Assembly: GCA_051859245.1 (NCBI GenBank)
Contig: JBHYGA010000005.1
Location: 32,001 to 96,000 of the forward strand
DNA from: Gemmatimonadaceae bacterium
GTDB taxonomy: Bacteria; Gemmatimonadota; Gemmatimonadetes; Gemmatimonadales; Gemmatimonadaceae
Direction of reading: 5' to 3'
DNA: 64,000 nucleotides
The notes below the pieces were generated by a model. That model did not search any database, was not told the DNA's origin, and saw nothing but the letters and a program-made list of their open reading frames with translations. Shown in pieces: positions 6,870-42,609 of this stretch (position 1 is its first letter; the number at the start of each line of letters is the position of its first letter). The position numbers were made by a program, and so were the translations under genes.

Positions 6870-8258
6870 TCAATACAACATGAGGAATGGATTCTCAAGC
6901 AAATGACGCACCGTCTGGAGGAACCGCGCACCCACCGCGCCATCGATCACACGATGATCGCAGCTCATGGTCACGCGCATGCGCTGACGCGGCACAAAGG
7001 CGCCATCGATCCACACAGGCTTCGTTTCAGTTGCGCCCACGGCCAGAATGCCGGCCTCGGGTGGATTGATGATGGCCGTGAACTGGTCAATGCCAAACAT
7101 GCCGAGGTTGCTCACGGAGAACGTTGACCCCGTGTATTCCTCGGGCTTGAGTTTGCGCTCACGAGCGCGACCGGCCAGTTCACGTGCTTCGCGACCGATT
7201 TCGCCGAGTCCTTTGCGATCCGCATCACGAATAACGGGCACAATCAATCCGTCGTCCGTGGCCACAGCCATGCCAATGTGCGCGTGCGCGAAATAACGAA
7301 TCGTGTCGCCAAGCCAGTGCGCGTTGCATTCCGGATGTTTCGCGAGCGCAACCGCCACGGCCTTCATGACAATGTCATTCACGCTGACCTTGAAGGCATC
7401 ACCAGCGGCGGCCATTTGCGTGCGCATTTCGCCGACGGTGGTCATATCGATTTCCGACGTGAGATAGAACGTCGGAATCGGACCGATCGACTCACCCAGT
7501 CGACGCGCAATTGTTTTGCGCATCTGTGTGAGCGTGACGTCGCGCACGTCGCCATCAATCTGCATGGCGGGCGTGAGCGGAATCGCAGGCGGCTTACCGG
7601 CGGGCTTCGCAGGCGCGGCCGTTGTTGATGACTTGCTCGAAGCACCCGCTGTGGCCGGTGCCACCGCTGCAGCGCGCGGTGCGGACGCGGCGGCTTCAAC
7701 ATCGCGGCGAATCACGCGGCCGCTCGGTCCGGTGCCTACCACGTTCGCCAGTGAGACGCCTTGTTCACTCGCCATGCGACGCGCGAGTGGTGAGGCTTTC
7801 ACGCGCCCGTCGTCAGCTGTAGGCTCGGCGGTGGGCGCAGCTGTCGAAGCGGGCGCTGAAGTCGGCACTGAAGCGGGCGCCGCAGCTGGAGCTGCGGCCG
7901 CTGCTGCGGGCGGGGCTGCCTGCGTCGACGGTGCAGCTTCTGCTGGTGCAGCTGCTGGTGCGCCCGCTGATGCAGCGGCGGCCGCTGGCGCACCACTCAA
8001 GAGCGCCGAAATATCTTCGTCGGCCGCCGCAATAATGCCGATCAGCTGACCAACAGGCGCCGTACTGTCGTCGCCAATGAATCGCTTGCGCAACACACCA
8101 TCGCCACGCGCGACGAGCTCCATGATGGCCTTGTCAGTTTCGACTTCGGCCAGCACATCACCGTTAGCAACGGTATCGCCTTCCGCTTTGAGCCACTTCG
8201 CCAGGCGTCCCTCTTCCATGGTTGGAGAGAGCGCCTCCATCATCACTTTGGTTGCCAT
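6870..8258 (-). CDS. pdhC: Pyruvate dehydrogenase E2, dihydrolipoamide acetyltransferase
   Basis: Single lipoyl domain (ETDKA), Ala/Pro linker, ASPLARRMA E3-binding domain, DHRVIDG catalytic motif. Confidence 0.97.
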   Translation of the reverse strand: MATKVMMEALSPTMEEGRLAKWLKAEGDTVANGDVLAEVETDKAIMELVARGDGVLRKRFIGDDSTAPVGQLIGIIAAADEDISALLSGAPAAAAASAGAPAAAPAEAAPSTQAAPPAAAAAAPAAAPASVPTSAPASTAAPTAEPTADDGRVKASPLARRMASEQGVSLANVVGTGPSGRVIRRDVEAAASAPRAAAVAPATAGASSKSSTTAAPAKPAGKPPAIPLTPAMQIDGDVRDVTLTQMRKTIARRLGESIGPIPTFYLTSEIDMTTVGEMRTQMAAAGDAFKVSVNDIVMKAVAVALAKHPECNAHWLGDTIRYFAHAHIGMAVATDDGLIVPVIRDADRKGLGEIGREARELAGRARERKLKPEEYTGSTFSVSNLGMFGIDQFTAIINPPEAGILAVGATETKPVWIDGAFVPRQRMRVTMSCDHRVIDGAVGARFLQTVRHLLENPFLMLY

Positions 8259-8271
8259 GATCGGGGTCGGG

Positions 8272-9255
8272 TCAGGCGTCGATGTAGAGGACCTGCTTTA
8301 CCGCCGCGATCGTTTTCGGAACGTCGGGCTTCGCGGCCTTCTCAATGTTCTTGGCGTACGGCATGGGCGCGTCGGCCTGATGCACGCGGAGTACGGGTGC
8401 ATCGAGGTGATCAAAACAGTGGCGCTGCACGTAGTCCACCACCTGCGCGCCAACGCCGCACACTTCCCAGCCTTCTTCCACCACAACGCAACGATTCGTT
8501 TTGCGCACGGACGCGGTGATCGCATCCACATCCATCGGGCGAATGGTGCGCAGATCCACGACTTCCGCGCGAATGCCTTCTTTCGCGAGTTGTTCCGCGG
8601 CCTGCAACGCCACGAGCACCATCTTGCCATGGGTGATCAATGAGACGTGATCACCTTCGCGCTTGACTTCGGCCTTGCCAAGCGGAATCACGTACTCTTC
8701 GTCGGGCACTTCGCCCTTCGTGTTGTACAACATTTCGCCTTCAAGAAAACAGACCGGATTGTCGTCGCGAATCGCAGCTTTGAGCAGTCCCTTCGCGTCA
8801 TACGGCGTGCCCGGCGTGACCACCTTGAGACCGGGAATGTGCGCCAGCCACGATTCCCAGGCCTGCGAGTGCTGCGCCGACAGCTGCAGCGCCGCACCGT
8901 TCGGTCCGCGAAACACCATGGGCATGGGGAACTGACCGCCCGTCATGTACAACATTTTTGCCGCGGCGTTCACAACCTGATCGAGCGCCAGCAACGCGAA
9001 GTTCCACGTCATGAACTCAATGATAGGACGCAAGCCAACCATCGCCGCGCCCACACCAACGCCTGCAAAACCAAGCTCGGTAATCGGCGTGTCGACCACG
9101 CGCATTTCACCAAACTCCTGCAGCAATCCTTTCGACACTTTGTACGCGCCCTGATACACCGCGACTTCCTCGCCCATGAGGAACACGCGATCGTCGCGCA
9201 ACATTTCTTCCCGCAGCGCCTGATTCAGCGCTTCGCGATACGTAATAACAGCCAT
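8272..9255 (-). CDS. pdhB: Pyruvate dehydrogenase E1 beta subunit
   Basis: GEEVAVYQGAYKVSKGL, DTPITE and AQHSQ motifs. Confidence 0.97.
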   Translation of the reverse strand: MAVITYREALNQALREEMLRDDRVFLMGEEVAVYQGAYKVSKGLLQEFGEMRVVDTPITELGFAGVGVGAAMVGLRPIIEFMTWNFALLALDQVVNAAAKMLYMTGGQFPMPMVFRGPNGAALQLSAQHSQAWESWLAHIPGLKVVTPGTPYDAKGLLKAAIRDDNPVCFLEGEMLYNTKGEVPDEEYVIPLGKAEVKREGDHVSLITHGKMVLVALQAAEQLAKEGIRAEVVDLRTIRPMDVDAITASVRKTNRCVVVEEGWEVCGVGAQVVDYVQRHCFDHLDAPVLRVHQADAPMPYAKNIEKAAKPDVPKTIAAVKQVLYIDA

Positions 9256-9261
9256 GGCGGA

Positions 9262-10341
9262 TCAGTCCGAAGTAGTGTCAACGAGCACGTCTTCAAGCAG
9301 CGCTTCAAGCGGCGGCTCCGGACTGTTCTCGGCGAAGTCAATTGAGTCTTGCACGATAGCCTTGATCTCTTCATCCATGGCGTTCCACTCGTCGGCGGAA
9401 AGATCACCAGCCTCTTCCATGGTTGTGCGCAGCAGCACCACCGGATCACGCTTGAGATACTTCTCAAGCTCTTCCTTGGTGCGATACGTGCCGCTCACCG
9501 CGTCCGACATGGAGTGGCCCATGAATCGATACGTGCGGATTTCGAGCAGTGTGGGCATGGACTCGGTGCGCGCGCGTGCAATCGCGGTTTCTGCAGCCGC
9601 GCGCACGGCAAATACATCCTGACCGTCGACTACATCACGCGGCATATCGTACGACGCACCGCGCTTGTAGATGTCGTTGATTGCCGAGGCACGTTCAACG
9701 GCCGTACCCATGCCGTAGCGATTGTTTTCAATCACAAACAGACACGGCAGCTTCCAGAGCGCGGCCATGTTAAGCGCCTCGTGAAACGCGCCGTTGTTCA
9801 CGGCGGCCTCACCCATGAAGCACACAATCACCTGATCGCCGCCGCGATATTTGATCGCAAAGCCCACACCGGCCGCAATGGGAATGTGTCCACCCACAAT
9901 GCCGTGACCGCCCAGGAAGCCGAGCGACTTGTCGAACAAGTGCATCGAGCCGCCCTTGCCGCGCACACAGCCGTCCACACGGCCAAACAGCTCGGCCATG
10001 ATTGCGCGCGGTGTCATGCCACGCGCGAGTGCCTGACCGTGATCGCGGTAGGTGGTGATGATGTAATCGTCTTCGCGCAGCAGCGAGATGAAGCCTGTGC
10101 TCACCGCTTCCTGTCCGATGTACAAATGACAGAAACCGCCGATGCGACCGATCGCGTACATCTCGGCCGTACGCTCTTCGAAACGACGCTGCATCAGCAT
10201 CGAGTACAGCAACTCGGTGTGCAGCTTCTTGCGCTCGGCCGGCGACAGTTCTGCCGACGGGCCCGATGACAATGCAGCGTCAGTCGAAGCGCCGTCGGAA
10301 GACGCCGCGCCCCGGCGTCGGGATGGCTTGGTGGTGCTCAT
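9262..10341 (-). CDS. pdhA: Pyruvate dehydrogenase E1 alpha subunit
   Basis: GFCHLYIGQEA, GKGGSMH, TPP motif GEAAVNNGAFHEALN, GHSMSD. Confidence 0.97.
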   Translation of the reverse strand: MSTTKPSRRRGAASSDGASTDAALSSGPSAELSPAERKKLHTELLYSMLMQRRFEERTAEMYAIGRIGGFCHLYIGQEAVSTGFISLLREDDYIITTYRDHGQALARGMTPRAIMAELFGRVDGCVRGKGGSMHLFDKSLGFLGGHGIVGGHIPIAAGVGFAIKYRGGDQVIVCFMGEAAVNNGAFHEALNMAALWKLPCLFVIENNRYGMGTAVERASAINDIYKRGASYDMPRDVVDGQDVFAVRAAAETAIARARTESMPTLLEIRTYRFMGHSMSDAVSGTYRTKEELEKYLKRDPVVLLRTTMEEAGDLSADEWNAMDEEIKAIVQDSIDFAENSPEPPLEALLEDVLVDTTSD

Positions 10342-10404
10342 GGTCAAATAAGGGAGTGGTCAGACGCGCTGCAGCCGAGAGCCCGGTGTGCGGCGCGTGG
10401 ATAG

Positions 10405-11313
10405 TCAGACGCCAGCGGCCTGCACTTGCTCCCACGCGTGATAACTGGAACGCACGAGCGGTCCGCTTTCGACGTGTTTGAAGCCCATGCCCATGCCGAC
10501 TTCACGAAACATCTTGAACTCGTCGGGCGTGACAAAACGATCGAGTGCGATGTGTCCGTCAGACGGACGGAGATACTGACCCAACGTGAGAATGTCGACG
10601 TCGACCTCACGCAGATCTTTCATCACTTCAATGACTTCTTCGTTCGTTTCGCCCATGCCAAGAATGATGCCCGTTTTGGTGGGAATCGTGGGGGCGATGC
10701 GCTTGGCCGTACGGAAAATGTTCATCACGCGCTCGTACCGTCCGCCCGGACGGGCCTTCTTGTACAATCGTGGTACGGTCTCGGTGTTGTGATTGTAGAT
10801 CTCGGGGCGCGCTTCAAGGACCGCGCGAATCGAATCTTCATTGCCCTGAAAATCGGGCACGAGCACTTCTACCGAACAGCCCGGCAGACGCTGATGAATC
10901 TGCCGGATGGTTTCGGCAAAGATGTACGCGCCAAAGTCGGGCAGGTCGTCGCGATCAACCGACGTGATCACCGCGTGACGCAGTCCCAGCTGCGCGACCG
11001 CTTCGCCCACACGCTCGGGCTCGGCAATGTCATACGCCGGTGGACGACCGTGTGACACGGCGCAGTACGCACAGTTACGCGTGCAGACATCGCCGAGGAT
11101 CATGAACGTGGCGGTGCCATGCTCCCAGCATTCACCAATGTTGGGGCAGTGCGCTTCCTGGCAGACGGTGTGAAGGTTGAGTTCCTTCATCATCTGCGTG
11201 AGTCGCAGATACGTGGGTCCACCGGGCGCCTTGACCTTGAGCCATGATGGCTTGCGTTCCGGCAACGGGTCGCGGCGATGCCGCCCCATGATCTGATAAA
11301 GCTGTTCTGCCAT
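10405..11313 (-). CDS. lipA: Lipoyl synthase
   Basis: CQEAHCPNIGEC, radical SAM CTRNCAYC, C-terminal RSSY. Confidence 0.98.
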   Translation of the reverse strand: MAEQLYQIMGRHRRDPLPERKPSWLKVKAPGGPTYLRLTQMMKELNLHTVCQEAHCPNIGECWEHGTATFMILGDVCTRNCAYCAVSHGRPPAYDIAEPERVGEAVAQLGLRHAVITSVDRDDLPDFGAYIFAETIRQIHQRLPGCSVEVLVPDFQGNEDSIRAVLEARPEIYNHNTETVPRLYKKARPGGRYERVMNIFRTAKRIAPTIPTKTGIILGMGETNEEVIEVMKDLREVDVDILTLGQYLRPSDGHIALDRFVTPDEFKMFREVGMGMGFKHVESGPLVRSSYHAWEQVQAAGV

Positions 11314-23954: not shown

Positions 23955-24833
23955 TCATCGACGCCAGAGCCAGTCACTCGAACCGAGTTGCTCGCGCGCA
24001 CGCGCAAACGCGATCTGGTAGGCGGCTGTCTCAACAATACGACGCGACGAGATTGACGCAACGCCGAATGCGGCGGCGAGTGCTTCTCGAAGGCGAGTCG
24101 CGGTTGCGGACGCATCGCACGTGGATGGTAGCGCCGCTCGCACCGAGGTTATCGCAGCCGCAGAACCGCGCTCGTGAGCGCCGTCTCGCGCAAAAGGCGC
24201 GAGCAGATCCTGATCGTTGTCCAGCAGTATCGACCCGTGCTGCAAGTAGCCTCCGTGCGCGCGCCACACCGAGCTACCCGCCAGCTTGGCCCCCTCAAGG
24301 ACCAGTTCGCCCGCCGACGGTTGCGCGTAGCACCGCGTACCCGATCGCAAGGCCTTCGCGTCGTCGCTCGAACCGGTGTGCAGCGCGGCCGGTACGCCAA
24401 TGGCCTGCAGGGCGAGCAAGAGTTTCGTGTTCACCGCGGCGTACACGGCGCGCCACGGAATGTCATCGGGCACGGGCAACGTCACGCTCCACGTCACCTC
24501 TCGGCTGTGCAGCAACGCCCGGCCACCCGTTGGCCGCCTCACCACGTCGTAGCCCGCGGCCCGGATGGCGTCCACGTCCCACAATGTGCGCACGGCTTCG
24601 TTGCGCCCAAAGCTCACGGTGGGCCGCGTCCATTCGTAAGTACGCAGCACCGCGCGCGCATCGGTGCGGGCGCTCAATGTGAACGCGAGGTCCCGCGCCA
24701 TATTGTCAATGGCTGGTTCCGGTCCGTCAGGGGCGACCTGCCACCGATCCGGCCACCAAACCGGCGCCGGTTCGGCCGGAGACTGCGCCTCGGCGCGTGA
24801 GGTGGCGGAAGTTCGTCGCGGCAGGGTCGGCAC
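23955..24833 (-). CDS. lipM: LipM-type octanoyltransferase / lipoate-protein ligase family
   Basis: [33 protein letters not shown]...LQHGSIL, matching Bacillus LipM motifs. Start uncertain. Confidence 0.8.
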
Positions 24834-24963
24834 GATTATTAACTTACGGGAGTTGACCATCCGGCGGTTGATGTTTCCCCTGGTTGGCCCGTGGATTCCC
24901 GGCCCGTTCGCGGGCCCCCCTTATCGCATTGTGTCTCCACCGGGCTGCGCCCGGTTTCAGAGG

Positions 24964-27855
<2,892 letters not shown>

Positions 27856-30720: not shown

Positions 30721-31536
30721 TTACGCCGCCGCAGAGGCATCCTCGTCGTGCGCATCGATCATTTCATCGCGCCGCCGATCGCGCGTGACGAGCAGCTCCT
30801 GAATCACCCAGGCCGCGCCACCCTTCAAGCGAATCTGATGCGGTGTGCAACCGAGATACCGCTGGCACGTGTTTCGGAACGCGCTGCCTGACGGGAAGTC
30901 GAGTGCTCCGGCCACGCCATCCGCACTGCGCGAACCATCTTCGAGCATGCTCGCGGCAACAATCAATCGGCCCCACGTGAGCATCTGGTGCGGAGGCGGC
31001 AACTGCGCGCCCTCAAGTCGCTTGCTCAGCAACCGACGTGAAACGGCAATCAGGCGCGCCAGTCCATCCGGAGTGAGCCGTTCATGGGCCCGCGTGACCG
31101 ACAGCATCACGGCGTCGCGCACAACAGAACGCAGGCCGGCCAGATGCGGCTTGAGCAGGCTTGAGACGCTGCGCGCTTCGGCTTGATCGAGCAGTGCGCC
31201 GAGCTGCGCGGGTGAGTCGGATTCGTCGGCCACGATCAGGACATCGATACCGCAGCGACCGGCGTCGAACATGTCGCGCGCACGTTCACGCGAGAGGTCT
31301 ACGTAGGCCACGAGGGCGGCGCGGGGTACACGAACGCGGAGCTGACGAACGCGCTCGAAGTCAGCGCGACCATCGACGTAGAGATCGAACACCACGACAT
31401 TGATCGGGCCGCGCTCGCACGCACGCGTGAGCGAAGTCCAGTCGTCGCAGGGCACGAACCGATACCGGTCGCGCGCCGCCTGACGAAGTCGTGCCGCACG
31501 GTTCTCGTGCGCCAGCAGCGTAGCAATCACACCCAT
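30721..31536 (-). CDS. AraC-family regulator with receiver-like N-terminal domain
   Basis: C-terminal double HTH (VAGALDFPSGSAFRNTCQRYLGCTP); N-terminal beta/alpha domain with VVVFD. Confidence 0.85.
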   Translation of the reverse strand: MGVIATLLAHENRAARLRQAARDRYRFVPCDDWTSLTRACERGPINVVVFDLYVDGRADFERVRQLRVRVPRAALVAYVDLSRERARDMFDAGRCGIDVLIVADESDSPAQLGALLDQAEARSVSSLLKPHLAGLRSVVRDAVMLSVTRAHERLTPDGLARLIAVSRRLLSKRLEGAQLPPPHQMLTWGRLIVAASMLEDGSRSADGVAGALDFPSGSAFRNTCQRYLGCTPHQIRLKGGAAWVIQELLVTRDRRRDEMIDAHDEDASAAA

Positions 31537-32000: not shown

Positions 32001-32612
32001 CTACAGCAACCGCCCCTGCGCCGCATCTCTCCGCGGCACGACATGACACGCCCGACACCGTGCCTCATACGAATCCGCCGCCCCGACCATGATCGTGGGC
32101 GAGTCGTACGGCGCCGGCTTCCCGTCGATCAGCCGCTGATTGCGACTCGCCGACGATCCGCACAGCACACAAATCGCGTGCAGTTTGTCCACCTGTTCAG
32201 CCACGGCCATGAGCTGCGGCATCATACCAAACGGCTCACCACGAAAATCTGTATCCGTGCCGGCCACAATCACACGCCGACCACGCTCGGCCAGCGCCGT
32301 GCACACGTCCACGATGCCGGCATCAAGAAACTGCGCCTCATCAATCGCAATCACGTGCGCCGTGGGATCCACCCGCTGCGCAATCTGCGCGGATGAATCC
32401 ACCGGCACCGCACTGAACGTGCGCTGATCGTGACTGGCAACGGCCCACAATCCCGCGTAGCGATCGTCAAGGTGTGACTTGAACACCTGCACGTGCTTGC
32501 GCGCGATTGTGGAGCGTCGCACCCGACGCATGAGTTCTTCGGTCTTTCCACTGAACATCACGCCGGCGATGACTTCAATCCATCCGCCGGGCGCGTGAAA
32601 GCCTGAACTCAT
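32001..32612 (-). CDS. tdk: Thymidine kinase
   Basis: [17 protein letters not shown], zinc ligands CVLC and CRAC, YEARCR. Confidence 0.97.
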
Positions 32613-32618
32613 GCGGTA

Positions 32619-34715
32619 TTACTCTCCCTGCGGACGACGACGGAACGGCAATGACGGACCGTCACCCATGCGCGAGTTGCCACGGTCACCGCCACGCGCA
32701 TCCGGACGCGGACGTGCGGCGCGCGACAACGCTTCACCACGCGACGCCCATTCACCGCGCATTTCCGTGCGCTCGGACGGCGAACGATCGCCGTACTCGC
32801 GACGCGCGGCATCATTGCCGAACGAACGCGGGCCGCCATCACGCGGCGAGCCGCCACGTGCACCATCACGAGGCGCGCCACCACGCGCACCGTCGCGCGG
32901 CGGACCACCGCGCGGTCCATCACCACGCGGCGCATCACCTCGCGGACCACGATCAAAGCTGCGCGCCGGTCCACGATCCGATCCGGCACCAAAACTACGA
33001 CCGGCGCCCGCACCCGGACCACGGCCCGGTCCACGCGGACCCGCAGCCGGTCCACGACCTTCACCACGCGGGCCGCGGCTCTCGCCACGATCTTCCCACG
33101 GCTTGCCACCACGTGACGCACCGCGATCTCCACCACGCTCACGCGGCGGACCACTGCGCGGACGCTCGCTACCACGATCCGCACCACCACGTGCACCGGC
33201 GAAGCCGGCGTGTCCGCCCGCTCCACGATCATCACGGCGCACATGCAACTGGCGTCCACGCAACGTGACGCCGGTGAGCTTTGCAATTACCGTTTCGACG
33301 GAATCACTCGCGATCTCCACGAGTGCGTGTGATTCGAACAGATCAATGCTGCCAATGCGATCGCCCGGCAATCCAGACTCACCAGCGATGGCGCCGAGCA
33401 AATCACCAGGGCGCACGTTGTCGCGCTTGCCCACGTTGAAGAACACGCGCGTTGTGCCGCTGTTCGCGGCCGATTCACTCGCCGCTGCTGCAGCCTGGCG
33501 AACAGGTGATGCAAACACCGCACGATTGGCGAGCGCGCTGCCCTGCGCAATGCTGAGCGCACGTCGCGCGTCGTCATACAAACGTACCGCTGCGGCCGCG
33601 ACTTCCACGGGATCAAACTCGTCGAGCAACGGCGCAACAAGCGCGAGATCCGCAGCACCAACGGTGCGCATATCGGTGAGTGCACCACGCATGGCGCTGA
33701 TCACCGCGTCTGCACCCTTGGCCGTTTTTGTCTGCGCGATTTCCAGCGTGAGCGGACGCGCGGCACCACCACTGATTGCGGTCATCGCCGGCACATCGCT
33801 CGGCTGAATAAAGAACACCGCTTCAACGGGCTGACCAGCGAGCGCACTCGCGAGCGCTTCGGCTGACGACGGCATGTCCCAACCAATGACGGCGGCCGTG
33901 TGACCAAGCGGCGACACGCGCACAATCTGCGTGGCACGTCCGTCAACACGAAGACCAAGATGTGCGAGCGCTTCTGCTGCCTCAGCCTCTGCCACATCAG
34001 TGCTTGCAATAACTGCAAGCGATGGCGGATCACGTTCATCAAGGAATGTGCGCAGCGCAGCGGTGCGTGCAGCCGGTGCGGTGATGAGATAGTGCGGCGT
34101 CACATTGAACGACACCGACATTGCCTTGACCAACGGTGTGATGTGACGCGCCTTGGGCAGATAGCGCTCAAGGAACTCTTTCACATCGCTGTCGTCTTCG
34201 GTGGCACTTGATACAACGCGCACCGCGCTCGATGGAAGGTCGGTGAGCAGCGCTTCGATGGCGTCGCGCGTGCCCTGTTCGGCGAGCATGACGTCGATGC
34301 CGAGCAATACAACTGCCTGGAGCGATTCCATCGACATGGCCGACGCGCGGCGCAGTGCCAGCAAATCAGCTGGGGTGCCAACTACGATCGCAACCGGACT
34401 CGTGGCCAATACACGCTTGGCGCGTGCGGCCGCAGTGACCGGCACAACACGAAGTGTTGGTGCGTCGAGCAAATCACGCGCCTCAGCGGCGGCGAGATGT
34501 GTCGCGGCGGCACTCGGCGTAATCACGAGGCAGGCCGGACCGGAGGGGGCGCCGCCCTGGCGGCTCCGCTCAACGCCGGGGCGAAGAGCTGCTTGTACAG
34601 TGCGCGGTTCCATCGCGCCCATCACGACCACATGCTGGCTGCGCGTGCCGCCAGTAGCCCCGGACTCCACGCCCGTTGCGGTTCCTACCCGTTCGTCGCC
34701 CACGTCCCGCTCCAT
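32619..34715 (-). CDS. Degenerate DEAD-box-like protein with DbpA/CsdA RNA-binding domain and RGG-rich tail
   Basis: Remnant motifs ITPS, VVGTPADL, SSAT; DbpA domain RVFFNVGKRDNVRPGDLLGAIAGESG...IGSIDL; no GKT or DEAD. Confidence 0.85.
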   Translation of the reverse strand: MERDVGDERVGTATGVESGATGGTRSQHVVVMGAMEPRTVQAALRPGVERSRQGGAPSGPACLVITPSAAATHLAAAEARDLLDAPTLRVVPVTAAARAKRVLATSPVAIVVGTPADLLALRRASAMSMESLQAVVLLGIDVMLAEQGTRDAIEALLTDLPSSAVRVVSSATEDDSDVKEFLERYLPKARHITPLVKAMSVSFNVTPHYLITAPAARTAALRTFLDERDPPSLAVIASTDVAEAEAAEALAHLGLRVDGRATQIVRVSPLGHTAAVIGWDMPSSAEALASALAGQPVEAVFFIQPSDVPAMTAISGGAARPLTLEIAQTKTAKGADAVISAMRGALTDMRTVGAADLALVAPLLDEFDPVEVAAAAVRLYDDARRALSIAQGSALANRAVFASPVRQAAAAASESAANSGTTRVFFNVGKRDNVRPGDLLGAIAGESGLPGDRIGSIDLFESHALVEIASDSVETVIAKLTGVTLRGRQLHVRRDDRGAGGHAGFAGARGGADRGSERPRSGPPRERGGDRGASRGGKPWEDRGESRGPRGEGRGPAAGPRGPGRGPGAGAGRSFGAGSDRGPARSFDRGPRGDAPRGDGPRGGPPRDGARGGAPRDGARGGSPRDGGPRSFGNDAARREYGDRSPSERTEMRGEWASRGEALSRAARPRPDARGGDRGNSRMGDGPSLPFRRRPQGE

Positions 34716-38856: not shown

Positions 38857-40119
38857 ATGCGTCTCGTACACCTGTCCGATCTGCATCTCGGTTTCCGACA
38901 GTTTCAGCGTCAGACCCCAACCGGTGTAAACCAGCGGGAGGCTGACGTTGCGGCCACCTGCGCACGCGCGATGACGCAGATCATTGCCATCAAGCCAGAC
39001 ATCGTGCTGGTTGGCGGCGACGTTTTTCATCAGGTGCGGCCTCCAAACTCGGCCATCCTTGACGCGTTCCGGATGTTCGCGCAGTTGCGTGCGGCGTTGC
39101 CCAATACGCTCATCGTGATGATTGCCGGTAATCACGACGTGCCGCGCACCACAGATGCGGGATGCATTCTGCAGCTGTTCACCGAGTTGAATGTACGCGT
39201 TGTGTTTCGTGGTGCGGAACGCATTGATGACGCGGCGCGTGACGTGTCCGTGCTGGCCGTGCCCTACGCACCACCCGGATTGCCGAGCTCGAACGGCGCG
39301 GTCGCGGTGCCGTCACACGTGTTTCAGATGGATGCGCGTCGCAAGTACAACGTGCTCCTGCTGCATGACGAAGTACGCGGTGTGGTGCCAACGGCTGCGC
39401 AGCCCGGCGATCGACTGTACACGCCCATTGATCCCGTAGACCTTGAGCGCGAGCCGTGGGACTACGTGGGGCTCGGCCACTATCACGTGTACCGACGCAT
39501 CGAATTGCAGCACGGCGCAACCCGACGGGCCATTCCGTGCTATTACAGCGGTTCACTCGACTACACGAGCACGAATCCGTGGGCCGACGTGCGTGAGGAA
39601 GTGCAGCGCAACGGTGCAAGCGCAGGGCAGGGCAAAGGCTTCATCGAGCACAATCTTGAAACCGGTGAACACATATTTCATCCGGTATCGGTGTCGAGAC
39701 GCCTGCTGGATCTGCCCGCGATCAACGCGGCTGACTGCACCGCAGCCGAACTTGATGATCTGATTGCGACCACACTCTCGCGAGCCGGTCGTGCACTGGA
39801 TGATGCGATTGTGCGACTCGTCGTGCGCGATGTGTCGCGGCATGTGGTGCGTACGCTGGACTATGCACCGCTCCGCGAAGCACGAAAGCGCACCATGCAC
39901 TTTCATCTTGACACACGCAAGCCGGAAGTGCTCGAGTCTGCCAGCACCGGTGGCGCCCCAAGCCGTCGCGCCACGCTGCGCGACAGACTCGCGGCGCGTT
40001 TGCAACTGCGTCCGCTCGCGCCGGGGCTCGATCGGGATCGGCTTGTACAACTCGGGCTGGCGTATCTTACGCGCGCCGAAGACGCCGCTGTAGCTGCGCT
40101 TCCCGTGGCGGAGGCGTAG
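38857..40119 (+). CDS. sbcD: SbcD/Mre11 nuclease
   Basis: Phosphoesterase motifs SDLHLG, GGDVFH, GNHD, LGHYH. Confidence 0.93.
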   Translation: MRLVHLSDLHLGFRQFQRQTPTGVNQREADVAATCARAMTQIIAIKPDIVLVGGDVFHQVRPPNSAILDAFRMFAQLRAALPNTLIVMIAGNHDVPRTTDAGCILQLFTELNVRVVFRGAERIDDAARDVSVLAVPYAPPGLPSSNGAVAVPSHVFQMDARRKYNVLLLHDEVRGVVPTAAQPGDRLYTPIDPVDLEREPWDYVGLGHYHVYRRIELQHGATRRAIPCYYSGSLDYTSTNPWADVREEVQRNGASAGQGKGFIEHNLETGEHIFHPVSVSRRLLDLPAINAADCTAAELDDLIATTLSRAGRALDDAIVRLVVRDVSRHVVRTLDYAPLREARKRTMHFHLDTRKPEVLESASTGGAPSRRATLRDRLAARLQLRPLAPGLDRDRLVQLGLAYLTRAEDAAVAALPVAEA

Positions 40120-40122
40120 CCC

Positions 40123-42609
40123 GTGCGACTGCATGCGCTCACGCTGCGCAACTTTCGGCAGCACGTCGACACGCACATCACCTTTGCTGCTGGTCTCACC
40201 GGCATCATTGGCGCAAACGGTGCGGGCAAGACCACAATTCTCGAGGCGATCGCGTGGGCGTTGTACGGCAACAGCGCCGCCCGTGGTACGCGCGAGTCCA
40301 TTCGCCACGCACGCGCGAGTGACAGCGCTCCCGTACGCGTTGAATTGGAGTTTGAGCTTGGGGCGCATCGCTACCGCGTAGAGCGCACGCTGCGTACCGC
40401 CGAAGTGCGGCTTGATGGCGGCGCCGAGCCGATTGCTAAAACCATTCGTGGTGTCAACGAGCTGTTGCAGCGCAAGCTTGGCATGTCGCGCGCGGAGTTC
40501 TTCAACACGTATTTCACGGGCCAGAAAGAGCTGGACGTGATGGCCGCGCTTGGTCCGGTCGAGCGCGCTCGGTTTCTGGTTCGCGTGCTTGGCTATGATC
40601 GACTTGGTGTGGCGCAGGAAATGTTGCGCGAGCAGCGGCGGACCCTCATTGCCGAGTTGGCCGGATTGCGGAGTGGCATGCCGGATCGCGATGAGGTGGA
40701 TCAGCGCGTGATCGATGCCGATATCGCGCTGGCCGCCGCGCGTGATCAGGGGGAACTCGCCAGTGCCGCGATGTCCGAAGCATCGCTGCAACTCGAGCAG
40801 GTGGCTCCGGTGTGGAAACACGCCGAGCAGTCGCGCGAGCGCTGGGTTGCGCTTGAGGCCGATCGACGTGTGCTCGTGGAGCAGATTGAAGCGCAAACGC
40901 GAGACCTGAATCGTCTGCAGCGTGAACGTGACGCCGCACGTGAAGCGCGCGAGGCGGCAGTGCCACTGCAGCGTGAAGCGACCGCGTTGCCCGGGCTGCG
41001 TGTGCAGTTGCAAGCGCTGGATGCACTCGCGGCCACGGAGAGTGAGCGACGCGTGATTGTGGAGCGGCTTCGTGCGTTGCGCGACGACGACGCGCGACTC
41101 GACGAGCGACTCTCTAAACTGCAATCGGCTCCGCAGTTGGAGATTGAGCAACGCGGCGCGCTTGATGCGCTGCGCGTATCGCTCGCCGAGGCGGGCACGT
41201 TGCATGACGACGCGCGCACCACCTGGGCACGTGATCGACAGGAAGCGGAAACGCGACTCGACGCATTGCGTCTGCAGCAGGACGAACTCACCGTCCAGCA
41301 AAAGGCGCTCGAGGGTCTGGGTGAGGAAAGCCCGTGTCCAACGTGCGGCCGTCCGCTCGGCGCGTCGTTCCGCGATGTGCTCGCGCTTGTGACCGAGCAG
41401 CTCGACACCGTAACCGTTGATGCGAGCTATTACCGGCAGCGCGTGCGCGAGCTGGCGTCGGTGCCGGAGTCCGTGACGGAACTTGATTCGCGACGTGTGG
41501 CCATCCAGCAGGAGATCACGGCTGCAGAACGGCGATACGCTCGAATTCAGGCCGCCCTGCTTGAGCGCGAACAGCTCACGCCGCAACTGCAAACGTTACG
41601 TGACCGAATCGCTGAAATCGCGGCCCAGTTGGCCACCTATTCATCTGATTACGACGCCGCTTTGCATGCCAAAGTTCGGGCCGATGTGGTGCGTGTGCAG
41701 GACATTGCGGCCAGAGCGGCCCAGCTCCAGGTCTCGGCCGATCGTGAACCGTCCGTGCGTGACCAGCTTGAGCAAACCGATGTTGCGCAACGGGCCGCGC
41801 AGCTGCGCCTTCGCACAATCGATGAGGAGCGGGTCGCGCTGCACTTTGATGCCACGCGTCATGAACAGCTGCGCGCCGAACACGCGGAGGCAACGCGACG
41901 CGTGCACGAAGCGCAACTGCATCACTCGGAGTGCCGAGGGGCAGTGAAGCGCGCGGAGCAGCAGCGGGAGGCCGCCTACGCGGCGCGCAAGGCCCTTGAG
42001 CAGCTGTTGGTTCGCGCCGCCGCGCTCGAGAACGAACGCTCGCTGCACGATGAGCTGGATGATGAGTACGCCGCACTTCGTGAAGAGCTGAACGATCAGC
42101 TGCGTCCTGAACTCTCCGAGCTGGCGAGCGCATTTCTTGAATCGCTCACGGATGGGCGCTACGCCTCGCTCGAACTGGATGAGAACTATGCGGTGCAGGT
42201 GCTGGAAGACGGCCTGCCCAAGACCGTGCTCTCGGGCGGCGAAGAAGATTTGTGCAACCTCGTGCTGCGTCTGGCCATTTCACAGATGATCGCCGAGCGG
42301 GCCGGTCAGCCGTTTTCGCTGCTTATACTGGACGAAGTATTTGGTTCACTGGATGAGTCGCGTCGCGAAAATGTACTGGCGCTTCTGCGTCGCTTGCACG
42401 ATCGTTTTGAGCAGGTGATGGTGATTACGCACATCGAAGACGTTCGCGAGGGCTTGGATCGCGTGTTGAGTGTGACCTACGATCAGGAAACAGGGAGTAG
42501 CCGGGTGCAGGCTTCGCTTGGTGGCGCGGCCGGTGCTGAGGCCGCTGCGTGGGAAACCGAGGGTGCCGAGCTCCGCGCGCGCGGTGCGTTGGACGAGGCG
42601 CAGGCGTGA
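40123..42609 (+). CDS. sbcC: SbcC/Rad50 SMC-like ATPase
   Basis: GANGAGKT, coiled coil with CPTCG zinc hook, LSGGE, LDEVFGSLD. Confidence 0.95.
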   Translation: MRLHALTLRNFRQHVDTHITFAAGLTGIIGANGAGKTTILEAIAWALYGNSAARGTRESIRHARASDSAPVRVELEFELGAHRYRVERTLRTAEVRLDGGAEPIAKTIRGVNELLQRKLGMSRAEFFNTYFTGQKELDVMAALGPVERARFLVRVLGYDRLGVAQEMLREQRRTLIAELAGLRSGMPDRDEVDQRVIDADIALAAARDQGELASAAMSEASLQLEQVAPVWKHAEQSRERWVALEADRRVLVEQIEAQTRDLNRLQRERDAAREAREAAVPLQREATALPGLRVQLQALDALAATESERRVIVERLRALRDDDARLDERLSKLQSAPQLEIEQRGALDALRVSLAEAGTLHDDARTTWARDRQEAETRLDALRLQQDELTVQQKALEGLGEESPCPTCGRPLGASFRDVLALVTEQLDTVTVDASYYRQRVRELASVPESVTELDSRRVAIQQEITAAERRYARIQAALLEREQLTPQLQTLRDRIAEIAAQLATYSSDYDAALHAKVRADVVRVQDIAARAAQLQVSADREPSVRDQLEQTDVAQRAAQLRLRTIDEERVALHFDATRHEQLRAEHAEATRRVHEAQLHHSECRGAVKRAEQQREAAYAARKALEQLLVRAAALENERSLHDELDDEYAALREELNDQLRPELSELASAFLESLTDGRYASLELDENYAVQVLEDGLPKTVLSGGEEDLCNLVLRLAISQMIAERAGQPFSLLILDEVFGSLDESRRENVLALLRRLHDRFEQVMVITHIEDVREGLDRVLSVTYDQETGSSRVQASLGGAAGAEAAAWETEGAELRARGALDEAQA

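Follow-up and report, generated by a model that had tools for sequence, protein, structure and literature searches.

On the reverse strand of the window (the whole 64-kb stretch of DNA analysed, 64,000 nucleotides) lies a gene whose product is laid out like the RNA helicase DeaD/CsdA without the residues by which such proteins use ATP. The question is whether this is a helicase gene in decay or a working protein of another kind and, if the latter, what it might do. Motif loss, fold, homology, purifying selection, restriction to one phylum and an operon-like link to tdk were all computed. Judged from its sequence, the protein is still built like a DEAD-box RNA helicase while all parts for ATP use are gone, and it looks like a non-enzymatic RNA-binding protein at work rather than a gene in decay. 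We take it to be functional because the identical dead design is kept throughout the Gemmatimonadota. This accords with the pseudohelicase concept as applied to Utp25, since a helicase fold has lost its catalytic motifs and is conserved under selection.

The frame is open over its full length, as stated in a preliminary description of this DNA (Table 1). The GTG is a likelier start than the ATG at 34715, because a TGA stands in frame immediately before the ATG, a GGAG lies 6 nt upstream of the GTG, and the database form of the protein (P0002) has 694 aa.

Table 1. Features of the pseudo-helicase gene and its downstream neighbour (positions in the window; res, residues of the 698-aa frame; fractions, rows of the family alignment).
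Feature	Position	Strand	Details
Pseudo-helicase ORF	32619..34715	(-)	Open frame, 698 aa, stop codon included
Probable true start	GTG 34703	(-)	694-aa product
RecA1-like domain	34116..34643	(-)	res 25-200; AF2 pLDDT mostly >90, Foldseek, collinear hhalign
Walker A position, VVVMGAMEPRT	34599..34631	(-)	res 29-39; no glycine-rich loop, no lysine
Motif Ia remnant, ITPS	34512..34523	(-)	res 65-68; aligned to PTRELA; P 58/79, R 3/79
Motif Ib remnant, GTP	34371..34379	(-)	res 113-115; aligned to TPGR; P 51/79, R 0/79
Motif II position, VLLGIDVML	34284..34310	(-)	res 136-144; L-G-I-D aligned to DEAD
Motif III remnant, SAT	34200..34208	(-)	res 170-172; S 4/79, A 20/79, T 11/79
Reduced RecA2-like domain	33756..34103	(-)	res 205-320; motif IVa/V segment and motif VI deleted
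Helical region, DeaD/Hera dimerisation-domain homologue	33459..33743	(-)	res 325-419; hhalign
DbpA-type RNA-binding domain (RBD)	33231..33455	(-)	res 421-495; Pfam PF03880; PDB matches to DbpA, YxiN and DeaD RBDs
RG/RGG/PRG-rich disordered tail	32622..33221	(-)	res 499-698
C-terminal peptide motif RREYGDRSPSERTEMRGEW	32748..32804	(-)	res 638-656; conserved
Putative Shine-Dalgarno-like run, GGGAGAG	32622..32628	(-)	In the last codons of the pseudo-helicase; the ATG of tdk follows 9 nt downstream
tdk (thymidine kinase)	32001..32612	(-)	PF00265, E 1.7e-51; conserved downstream partner

By hhalign, and by a Foldseek search with an AlphaFold model, the domain order is RecA1, RecA2, putative dimerisation helices, RBD and a 200-aa RG-rich tail, which bears out the DeaD/CsdA-like layout first proposed. 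The family aligns with intact helicases over 452 collinear columns (hhalign probability 100%, E 1.1e-55). The AF2 model has a mean pLDDT of 88.1, and over 40 structures of DEAD-box proteins match it at E<=1e-11. DbpA 7pli is the top Foldseek match in the PDB (E 1.6e-18, 513 columns), followed by CshA 5ivl (E 1.5e-15) and then eIF4A, DDX6, Dbp5 and others; the structural comparison recommended at the outset returned DEAD-box cores, with DbpA and CshA the best. By hhalign, AF2 and Foldseek alike, the two RecA-like domains are homologous to the helicase core, activity aside, and the second carries a conserved DPPS at residues 229-232. Pfam reports no DEAD (PF00270) or Helicase_C (PF00271) match at E<=1, the DbpA domain being the sole Pfam domain found, and all eight NCBIfam helicase models fall far under their cut-offs (e.g. 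PRK11634 DeaD, 27 bits against 989). Hera, CsdA (DeaD) and CshA have RecA1, RecA2, a dimerisation domain and an RRM-like DbpA-type RBD in the same order. The pseudo-helicase differs from them in that motifs Q, I, II and VI and the IVa/V segment of RecA2 are missing or deleted, and in that, unlike the Hera/CsdA/CshA sub-family, it is matched by none of the Pfam models DEAD, Helicase_C and DeaD_dimer. Going by this homology, the ancestor is a dimeric DEAD-box helicase of the DeaD/CsdA/Hera type.

Motif retention was counted at aligned columns, in 46 close relatives (P0002-P0047) and in 79 family rows; these are the reliable counts, as position-blind motif regexes pick up 'DEAD-like' and 'SAT' strings by chance. 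In a profile alignment with intact helicases, VVVMGAMEPRT falls on Walker A and VLLGIDVML on DEAD, where the preliminary description had read them. The Walker lysine occurs in 0/79 rows, as does the GKT threonine, and for DEAD the first aspartate is found in 0/79, the glutamate in 2/79 and the last aspartate in 69/79. Orthologues retaining GKT/DEAD, the outcome named beforehand as the one that would speak against a dead helicase, were accordingly sought, and the Walker lysine and first DEAD aspartate proved to be present in 0/46 close relatives as well. At the N-terminus the segment of the Q motif is absent or unalignable (glutamine in 0/79 rows). Motifs V (TDVAARGxD) and VI (HRIGRTGR) are deleted outright, with gaps in 74-79 of the 79 rows, rising to 78-79 at the H-G-Q-R-...-T-D and motif VI T-R-A-G columns; the H and R of motif VI are each kept in 0/79. 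The HRIGRTGR reported as missing has thus gone by deletion, and motif V likewise. ITPS, GTP and SAT do stand at motifs Ia, Ib and III, as first described, with the restriction that SAT is confined to the closest relatives, a remnant without family-wide conservation. The statement that the RNA-binding modules are kept is true of the DbpA RBD and of the RG tail but not of the core, in which the RecA2 IVa/V segment is deleted and the GG and Ib motifs are degenerate.

Two arginine features of the core are recorded separately. In the closest subfamily R38-T39 occupies the position of the Walker Lys-Thr pair, and R38 is near-invariant in a 15-row alignment (A2); on sequence grounds some phosphate contact through this pair is possible. 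Six further arginines (R25, R50, R98, R101, R166 and R217) are invariant or nearly so in the family, which may hint at a specific surface function of the core.

The family is large: at E<=1e-30 it numbers 118 cluster representatives (clusters at 50% identity), and Walker A and motif VI occur together in none of the best 150 matches. In a quick phylogeny the degenerate forms make up one clade, whose stem is long (1.01 changes per column) and whose taxonomically labelled members all belong to the Gemmatimonadota. A scan of loci with alignment A2 used patterns from the RBD, so that most of its 80 loci are ordinary helicases of other phyla; the 35 loci classified are 13 of the family, 18 intact helicases, 3 of a sister subclade and one, L015, cut short where its contig stops. 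Some members of the sister subclade (P0048, P0219, L017, L061 and L062) keep GKT, motifs V and VI being absent, whereas the subclade of the window has none of these. Such graded decay is in keeping with an origin by steps following duplication. Selection is purifying in every domain, as the dN/dS analysis proposed at the outset reveals: from three unsaturated pairs (dS 0.24-0.8), dN/dS stays within 0.02-0.12 throughout the domains. It is 0.06-0.12 in RecA1, 0.05-0.10 in RecA2, 0.03-0.055 in the helical region, 0.095-0.12 in the tail and lowest, at 0.016-0.022, in the RBD. Selection on the core is about as strong as on the tail, for which a role as no more than a 'spacer' offers no obvious reason.

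The RBD is recognised by PF03880 over residues 423-493 (E 3.5e-23; score 81.9 bits, cut-off 25.6), and retains 11 of the 12 columns that 15 intact helicases share without exception (mean over the family 0.84). The closest PDB sequences are those of DbpA (7pli) and YxiN (2g0c). E. coli DbpA and B. subtilis YxiN, specific for hairpin 92 of 23S rRNA, have their RBDs in the same Pfam family; unlike the pseudo-helicase, they are monomeric active ATPases with neither a dimerisation domain nor an RG tail. For Hera, CsdA and CshA, the available part of PMC11850223 describes the RBD as the chief RNA anchor, binding at ~0.3-1 uM in isolation, and the dimeric core as a weak binder, at 18-28 uM. By analogy, a protein with a dimerisation domain and an RBD would keep most of the RNA affinity, because the RBD anchors and the core is weak (PMC11850223, same part).

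Beyond the RBD, the tail contains 26% G, 21% R and 12% P, carries a net charge of +17 and has 25 RG/GR dipeptides and 7 RGG; tandem repeats of 27 nt and 15 nt lie within its coding sequence at 32836-32945. An RG-rich tail had been described correctly, at '~170 aa' somewhat short of the actual 200. In the intact DeaD paralogues of the Gemmatimonadota the chain stops after the RBD, with no RG tail: their median length is 571 aa, against 636 aa for the pseudo-helicases, and the R+G fraction of their last 150 residues is 0.21, against 0.45. E. coli DeaD also has an R/G-rich C-terminal region, according to the available text of PMC3093544; compared with the intact Gemmatimonadota DeaD paralogues, the tail of the pseudo-helicase is much longer. 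Within it, the peptide motif RREYGDRSPSERTEMRGEW is present in 35 of the 46 close relatives and in 40 of 340 fetched proteins, every one a family member. A search for the motif among proteins of 383-1222 aa found it nowhere outside the family, to which all 7 matches belong.

What had been called a linker does lie between the core and the RBD, and is probably a conserved dimerisation domain of the DeaD/Hera type, predicted to dimerise. By hhalign, residues 325-419 align to the segment of the intact paralogues that bears PF25399, with an AAA motif in 78/79 rows, while the Pfam DeaD_dimer model (PF25399) itself gives no match to the window protein at E<=1. Structure prediction yields a homodimer score of 0.47 against 0.00 for the best control, which may reflect resemblance to the solved CshA, Hera and CsdA dimers rather than binding by this copy. 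Of 30 proteins with structures solved as pairs, 20 reach the mark set for this score, and of 23 solved as single chains, 1 does. The homodimer runs agree in 82% or more of their contacts, with a partner pLDDT of at least 75. The predicted interface covers residues 335-394, including EFDPVEVAAAA, and would use the helical segment equivalent to that of the Hera, CsdA and CshA dimers.

The remaining feature of the locus is its neighbour. The tdk gene, identified as such by PF00265, was said to start 6 nt after the pseudo-helicase stop, and this is exact (TAA at 32619-32621, ATG at 32612). It lies directly downstream in all 13 family loci, from 13 species-representative genomes, at a spacing of -4 to ~+20 nt and across 33-74% protein identity; the sister subclade has this synteny in 0/3 loci. 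Rfam at E<=1 gives just one chance-level snoRNA match, a signal scan found 0 sigma-70-like promoters and 3 terminator-like sites where 3.2 are expected, and a GC3 filter for real genes does not discriminate.

The most likely function, to which we give a little better than an even chance, is that of a dimeric scaffold or chaperone that binds RNA without need of ATP. The chaperone, scaffold and regulator roles first proposed would all be compatible with the sequence analysis. The picture that we infer has the protein devoid of ATPase activity, bound to RNA and dimeric in the cell, with the following role. The pseudo-helicase would act as a homodimer without ATP, its two RBDs fixing it to structured RNA, plausibly rRNA or the hairpins bound by the RBD of the intact paralogue. 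The paired basic, disordered tails would contribute non-specific RNA binding and annealing capacity, and the dead core could serve as a rigid spacer or as a surface for protein docking, for a net role as an RNA chaperone or as a scaffold in ribosome or RNP assembly. The conserved coupling to tdk is left unexplained by this model.

A different use of the same parts would make the pseudo-helicase a regulatory subunit of an intact DeaD, either by forming a heterodimer of one live and one dead core with the RG tail attached, or by competing for the targets of the RBD; helicase activity would be tuned, localised or inhibited either way. The dimerisation segment EFDP..AAAA, common to pseudo-helicases and intact Gemmatimonadota DeaD, is consistent with this, as are the RBDs, near-identical to those of intact helicases at the invariant positions. 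Potential partners are at hand, intact DeaD-type helicases with PF25399 being widespread in Gemmatimonadaceae and Gemmatimonas (L038, L050, L054 and L067); an intact Gemmatimonas DeaD used as query gives at least 120 matches at 66-95% identity. In the available part of PMC11850223, Hera-type domains are described as dimerising very stably, and heterodimers engineered to contain a single dead core as working tools. However, the 93 long ORFs of the window include no DEAD-box gene, the genes for intact DeaD and pseudo-helicase are not neighbours, and none of the at least 120 intact-DeaD matches listed is assignable to the contig of the pseudo-helicase. The long stem of the clade would also have allowed divergence to a self-specific interface. 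We consider a regulatory subunit unlikely, if a serious contender. Rather less probable still is the specific form of a two-component DeaD system in the Gemmatimonadota, in which the pseudo-helicase would pair with the tail-less DeaD paralogue through the shared Hera-type domain as an asymmetric live/dead dimer, and its RG tail and C-terminal docking peptide would target or restrain the enzyme. If true, this would be nature's counterpart to the half-dead Hera heterodimers that have been engineered, and the first case in bacteria of a helicase under the control of its own pseudo-enzyme paralogue.

The composition of the tail, with its many RG/GR and RGG elements, raises the thought of a protein that is mainly a scaffold for RNA-protein condensates, the tail driving phase separation and the dimeric folded part making it multivalent. 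That the RG tail is specific to the pseudo-helicase would agree with this, and the predicted dimer would double the valency; the idea draws on composition alone, though, and the C-terminal peptide motif suggests specific docking beyond bulk phase behaviour, so that we regard it as improbable. The invariable position of tdk in the family loci, and the Shine-Dalgarno-like GGGAGAG inside the final codons of the pseudo-helicase, would favour a role tied to thymidine kinase or nucleotide salvage, such as control of tdk translation or mRNA stability, in place of a general chaperone. Against such a role, we know of no functional link between DEAD-box-type proteins and Tdk, membership of a bacterial operon often means mere co-expression, and the degenerate proteins of the sister subclade lack the synteny; it seems a long shot.

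Very little probability attaches to a cryptic nucleotide-dependent activity at a remodelled site such as R38-T39, which would make the protein a divergent enzyme and no pseudo-enzyme. The Arg-Thr pair of the closest subfamily, the widely kept last aspartate of DEAD and the GKT of some sister-subclade members all point that way. Acidic and proline residues stand in place of the glycine-rich loop, however, retention is 0-2 of 79 rows for the Q motif, for the first D and the E of DEAD, for motif V and for the arginines of motif VI, and R38-T39 is not conserved in the consensus of the wider family. As for a strain-specific decaying gene, pseudogene or annotation artefact, whose sole possible hint is the faintness of the Pfam signal over the N-terminal half and for which nothing else was found, it is ruled out to a negligible residue by the intact frame, low dN/dS in all domains, motif losses shared by 46/46 close relatives and by 13 species-representative genomes with conserved tdk synteny, and the confident fold prediction.

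The nearest known parallel to the ATP-independent scaffold or chaperone that we favour is Utp25/Def of the eukaryotic SSU-processome, which according to the available text of PMC9539457 has a conserved two-RecA DEAD-box fold with vestigial motifs, like the pseudo-helicase, together with a long disordered accessory region and a proposed structural role in ribosome assembly. As presented there, Utp25 differs in being eukaryotic and nucleolar, in having its disordered region at the N-terminus rather than as a C-terminal tail, and in being without the DbpA RBD and predicted Hera-type dimerisation domain of the pseudo-helicase. Its independence of the motifs is backed by mutation (PMC9539457, same text), whereas the Gemmatimonadota family is known from sequence only. 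No relationship between Utp25 and the pseudo-helicase was detected in this analysis. Among bacteria, the available part of PMC4504706 describes PriA of Deinococcus radiodurans, an SF2 homologue that has lost its helicase function and is nonetheless retained; it is a DNA replication-restart protein from another helicase family, no RNA-binding DEAD-box derivative, and a single lineage-specific case. An earlier description of a bacterial DEAD-box pseudo-helicase was not found in the literature searched. The one trace met with is a remark from 2011 in the available text of PMC3093544, with 'data not shown', that Gemmatimonas aurantiaca has a gene with a DbpA RBD outside a recognised DEAD/Helicase_C context. 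In public databases the family goes under 'ATP-dependent RNA helicase DeaD', 'hypothetical' and 'DbpA RNA binding domain-containing protein'.

In genome annotation, such genes should not be counted as helicases. The documented helicase-derived pseudo-enzymes are, in the texts available, Utp25 in eukaryotes and a single DNA helicase in bacteria (Deinococcus PriA). The Gemmatimonadota family makes visible a stepwise route from enzyme to pseudo-enzyme, and offers a natural experiment on what the dimerisation domain, RBD, basic tail and inert core of a dimeric DEAD-box helicase do alone.

The reading frame of the pseudo-helicase, described as intact in the preliminary description, is indeed open throughout. 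An in-frame TGA lies immediately before the ATG at 34715; the GTG four codons further on (34703) is probably the true start, because it has a GGAG 6 nt upstream and the database form of the protein (P0002) is 694 aa long. The DbpA-type RNA-binding domain (RBD) is the sole Pfam match of the protein (residues 423-493, E 3.5e-23), with no match to DEAD or Helicase_C at E<=1, and the eight NCBIfam helicase models that match it are all far under their cut-offs (e.g. CshA, 39.7 bits vs 646; DeaD PRK11634, 27.2 vs 989). Among PDB sequences, phmmer returns 24 distinct matches at E<=1, all of them DEAD-box proteins or their RBDs. The alignment with CshA (5ivl, E 1.6e-7) spans residues 62-260 and pairs ITPS with PTRELA, GTPADL with GTPGR, LLGIDVML with LDEADEML, and SAT with SAT. 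The sequence elements listed in the preliminary description were all found where it had placed them, as was the 6-nt gap between the TAA of the pseudo-helicase and the ATG of tdk (PF00265, E 1.7e-51).

A word-indexed protein search with the window protein gives 73 matches, the closest 46 of which (P0002-P0047) are 32-100% identical to it. PF03880 is the sole domain in 43 of these, P0019 also has PF00270, and two truncated ones are domain-less. Database names of the relatives are 'ATP-dependent RNA helicase DeaD' (JGI), 'hypothetical protein' and 'DbpA RNA binding domain-containing protein [Gemmatimonadaceae bacterium]'. Retention of GKT or DEAD by orthologues had been raised at the outset as a possibility, and when all 74 sequences are aligned with MAFFT, not one of the 46 has either at the corresponding position; motifs V and VI are gapped in every degenerate sequence of that alignment. 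An exhaustive HMMER search of representatives yields 3046 matches at E<=1e-3, of which 860 reach E<=1e-10 and 118 reach E<=1e-30, and no protein among the best 150 has Walker A and motif VI together, as judged by position-blind regular expressions. In one relative, P0219, Walker A, DEAD and SAT are present and V and VI absent. For motif scoring, 79 family rows and 15 intact helicases were combined in one alignment, and retention was counted at the columns that do not vary among the intact proteins. The window protein keeps 1/10 of these in the N-terminal/Q region, 2/11 around motif I, 5/24 in Ia-Ib, 11/21 in II-III, 9/41 in RecA2, 3/6 in the dimerisation domain and 11/12 in the RBD. The Walker lysine and the first DEAD aspartate, already reported as gone from the window protein, occur in none of the 79 rows, and the same is true of the Q-motif glutamine and the histidine and arginine of motif VI. 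The last DEAD aspartate is retained in 69/79, and six arginines (R25, R50, R98, R101, R166 and R217) are invariant or near-invariant in the family.

Profile-profile comparison of the family alignment with that of intact helicases from Gemmatimonadota and elsewhere gives a probability of 100% (E 1.1e-55) over 452 collinear columns, extending from the P-loop position through the end of the RBD. RecA2 carries two real deletions, one from motif IVa to V and the other of motif VI, the latter accounting for the missing HRIGRTGR. An AlphaFold2 model of residues 1-498, built with the 79-row alignment (mean pLDDT 88.1, pTM 0.58), has a pair of alpha/beta domains, a region of helices (H325-348, H354-366, H369-419) and a small RBD, also alpha/beta. 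Its top Foldseek matches in the PDB are DbpA (7pli, E 1.6e-18, 513 columns) and CshA (5ivl, E 1.5e-15), followed by eIF4A, DDX6, Dhh1, UAP56, Dbp5 and others, with TM-scores of 0.3-0.4, low as expected where flexible domains are oriented differently. Collinearity and structural matches thus bear out the proposed DeaD/CsdA layout. The linker is a predicted dimerisation domain: the Pfam DeaD_dimer segment (PF25399) of the intact paralogue P0236 (residues 385-438) aligns in hhalign with residues ~325-378, sharing the motif EFDP..(I/V)AAAA, and PF25399 itself has no Pfam match in the window protein. The AAA columns are retained in 78/79 family rows, and D368 is invariant. Homodimer prediction for residues 205-420 with their own alignment scores 0.47 (runs 0.47, 0.48 and 0.40; best control 0.00), on a tool whose mark is met by 20/30 proteins solved as pairs and 1/23 solved as single chains. 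The runs share at least 82% of contacts, with partner pLDDT of at least 75 and an interface at residues 335-394. Since dimers of CshA, Hera and CsdA have been solved, this score may show likeness to them rather than binding.

The C-terminal tail was recognised correctly as RGG/RGP-rich, and at 200 aa is longer than the ~170 aa first estimated. It is 26% G, 21% R and 12% P, with a net charge of +17, 25 RG/GR dipeptides and seven RGG. Part of it consists of PRDGARGGx and PRGDx peptide repeats, encoded by the 27-nt and 15-nt tandem repeats respectively (see table). Tail length differs between relatives (proteins of 557-723 aa), and intact paralogues are without the strongly basic disordered tail seen in the pseudo-helicase. 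The C-terminal peptide RREYGDRSPSERTEMRGEW (residues 638-656) is kept in 35/46 close relatives, and a search for it gave no match outside the family. The ORFs overlying the tail have no Pfam match and are most likely composition artefacts of G+C-rich repeat DNA.

Features of the window in and around the pseudo-helicase gene
Feature	Position	Strand	Description
Lipoate-centred housekeeping cluster	6873-11313 and 23958-27852		2-oxoacid dehydrogenase E1 alpha, E1 beta and E2; lipoyl synthase; lipoate-protein ligase-type gene; glycine dehydrogenase GcvP
AraC-type HTH gene	30721-31536	-	PF12833 in C-terminal half; N-terminal half without Pfam match
Pseudo-helicase ORF	32619..34715	-	intact frame, 698 aa
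Tandem DNA repeats in tail	32836-32945		27 nt x 3.3 copies; 15 nt x 3.5 copies
Overlapping ORFs on RG-rich tail	32611-33804, 32609-33286, 32651-33268	+, -, +	205-398 aa, alternative-frame/antisense
SbcCD-like genes	38857-42606		

A scan of species-representative genomes confirmed 560 of 600 matched stretches; the best 80 loci were kept and 35 of those classified. Thirteen (L001-L013) are family members, all labelled as Gemmatimonadota, Gemmatimonadales, Gemmatimonadaceae or Gemmatimonas, the nearest among the best 80 being L001 of an uncultured Gemmatimonas sp. (74% identical), which makes a Gemmatimonadaceae source of the window very probable. Eighteen are intact helicases, four of them from Gemmatimonadota (L038, L050, L054, L067), L015 is truncated, and L017 (Longimicrobium), L061 and L062 (Gemmatimonadales) keep Walker A and lack V and VI. 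Look-up in the Atlas gives unnamed 'hypothetical protein' clusters with Gemmatimonadota as the commonest phylum. The tdk gene lies directly downstream in 13/13 family loci, from a 4-nt overlap to ~20 nt away, and in 0/7 other loci tested. A divergent class I/II aminotransferase gene accompanies 11/13, an Lrp/AsnC-like gene 11/13 and the AraC-type gene 9/13, several of the misses falling at contig ends. The AraC-type gene is the best-conserved in the neighbourhood, its protein being 87-94% identical over nine related loci where the pseudo-helicase is 42-74%. In L013 (9524-10125) tdk matches in three pieces in different frames, reflecting either a frameshift or a MAG assembly error. The lipoate-centred cluster and SbcCD-like genes are ordinary chromosomal context.

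Selection was gauged by Nei-Gojobori dN/dS on codon alignments, as the preliminary description had proposed. In the three unsaturated pairs (L003/L005, L002/L003, L002/L005; dS 0.24-0.8), values over all domains are 0.016-0.12: RecA1 0.06-0.12, RecA2 0.05-0.10, helical region 0.03-0.055, RBD 0.016-0.022 and tail 0.095-0.12. The low values in RecA1 and RecA2 mean that purifying selection acts on the motif-less core, whose constraint matches that of the tail. Ratios for more distant pairs, in which dS is close to or past saturation, are 0.07-0.45. Among the matches listed, identity between intact DeaD proteins of Gemmatimonadaceae is 66-95%, vs 42-45% for the pseudo-helicase over a comparable range; the latter evolves faster yet stays constrained. 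In a quick IQ-TREE tree (LG+C20+F+G4, SH-aLRT only; 71 rows chosen from ~340 proteins and 35 locus ORFs), 41/41 degenerate rows, all without motifs V and VI, form one clade (support 100, stem 1.01) separate from that of intact Gemmatimonadota DeaD, although long-branch artefacts are possible with so long a stem. The window protein groups with the rest of the fully degenerate forms in a 24-row subclade (support 99), whose 17-row sister (support 98) comprises forms with GKT (P0048, P0219, L017, L061, L062) or GPGAGT. The simplest reading, with the tree rooted on intact helicases, would be that a single early duplication in Gemmatimonadota was followed first by loss of the RecA2 motifs and later by gradual decay of the ATP-binding motifs of RecA1. 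The sister proteins, which also include P0054-P0068, are Gemmatimonadota degenerate DEAD-box/DbpA proteins not beside tdk, and probably represent a second paralogue as well as an intermediate stage of decay.

On balance, the pseudo-helicase probably works without ATP, as a dimeric scaffold or chaperone that binds RNA. It has retained the high-affinity, ATP-independent parts, in combination with a strongly basic disordered tail; from this anatomy it would be expected to bind RNA, to dimerise in vivo and to be devoid of ATPase activity. That it regulates the intact DeaD, by heterodimerisation or competition, is unlikely, and that it is a condensate scaffold distinctly more so. A function linked to tdk appears improbable, and cryptic nucleotide use through R38-T39 highly improbable. 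Strain-specific decay is ruled out by the family-wide motif loss and the purifying selection.

By descent the pseudo-helicase belongs with the dimeric Hera/CsdA/CshA sub-family of DEAD-box proteins. It is not a DEAD-box helicase when judged by the motifs that define the group: motifs I, II, V and VI and the Q motif are missing, and its scores fall short of the family-model cut-offs. It fits the 'pseudohelicase' concept proposed for yeast Utp25 (PMC9539457); PriA of D. radiodurans is a bacterial precedent in a DNA helicase family (PMC4504706). A remark in a 2011 paper notes a Gemmatimonas aurantiaca DbpA-RBD gene outside a recognised DEAD/Helicase_C context (PMC3093544), which probably refers to this family as Pfam shows it. 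Treponema genes in which the DbpA-RBD stands alone are mentioned in the same paper. Together with an Atlas 'hypothetical protein' cluster of Spirochaetota (feature score 0.90), in which 15% of members have Helicase_C, they hint that spirochaetes may have their own, independent lineage of degenerate DEAD-box proteins. In the openly accessible literature no description of the Gemmatimonadota family was found. The initial reading as a pseudo-helicase holds, and is extended by the RecA2 deletions, the retained predicted dimerisation domain and a phylum-wide bacterial family.
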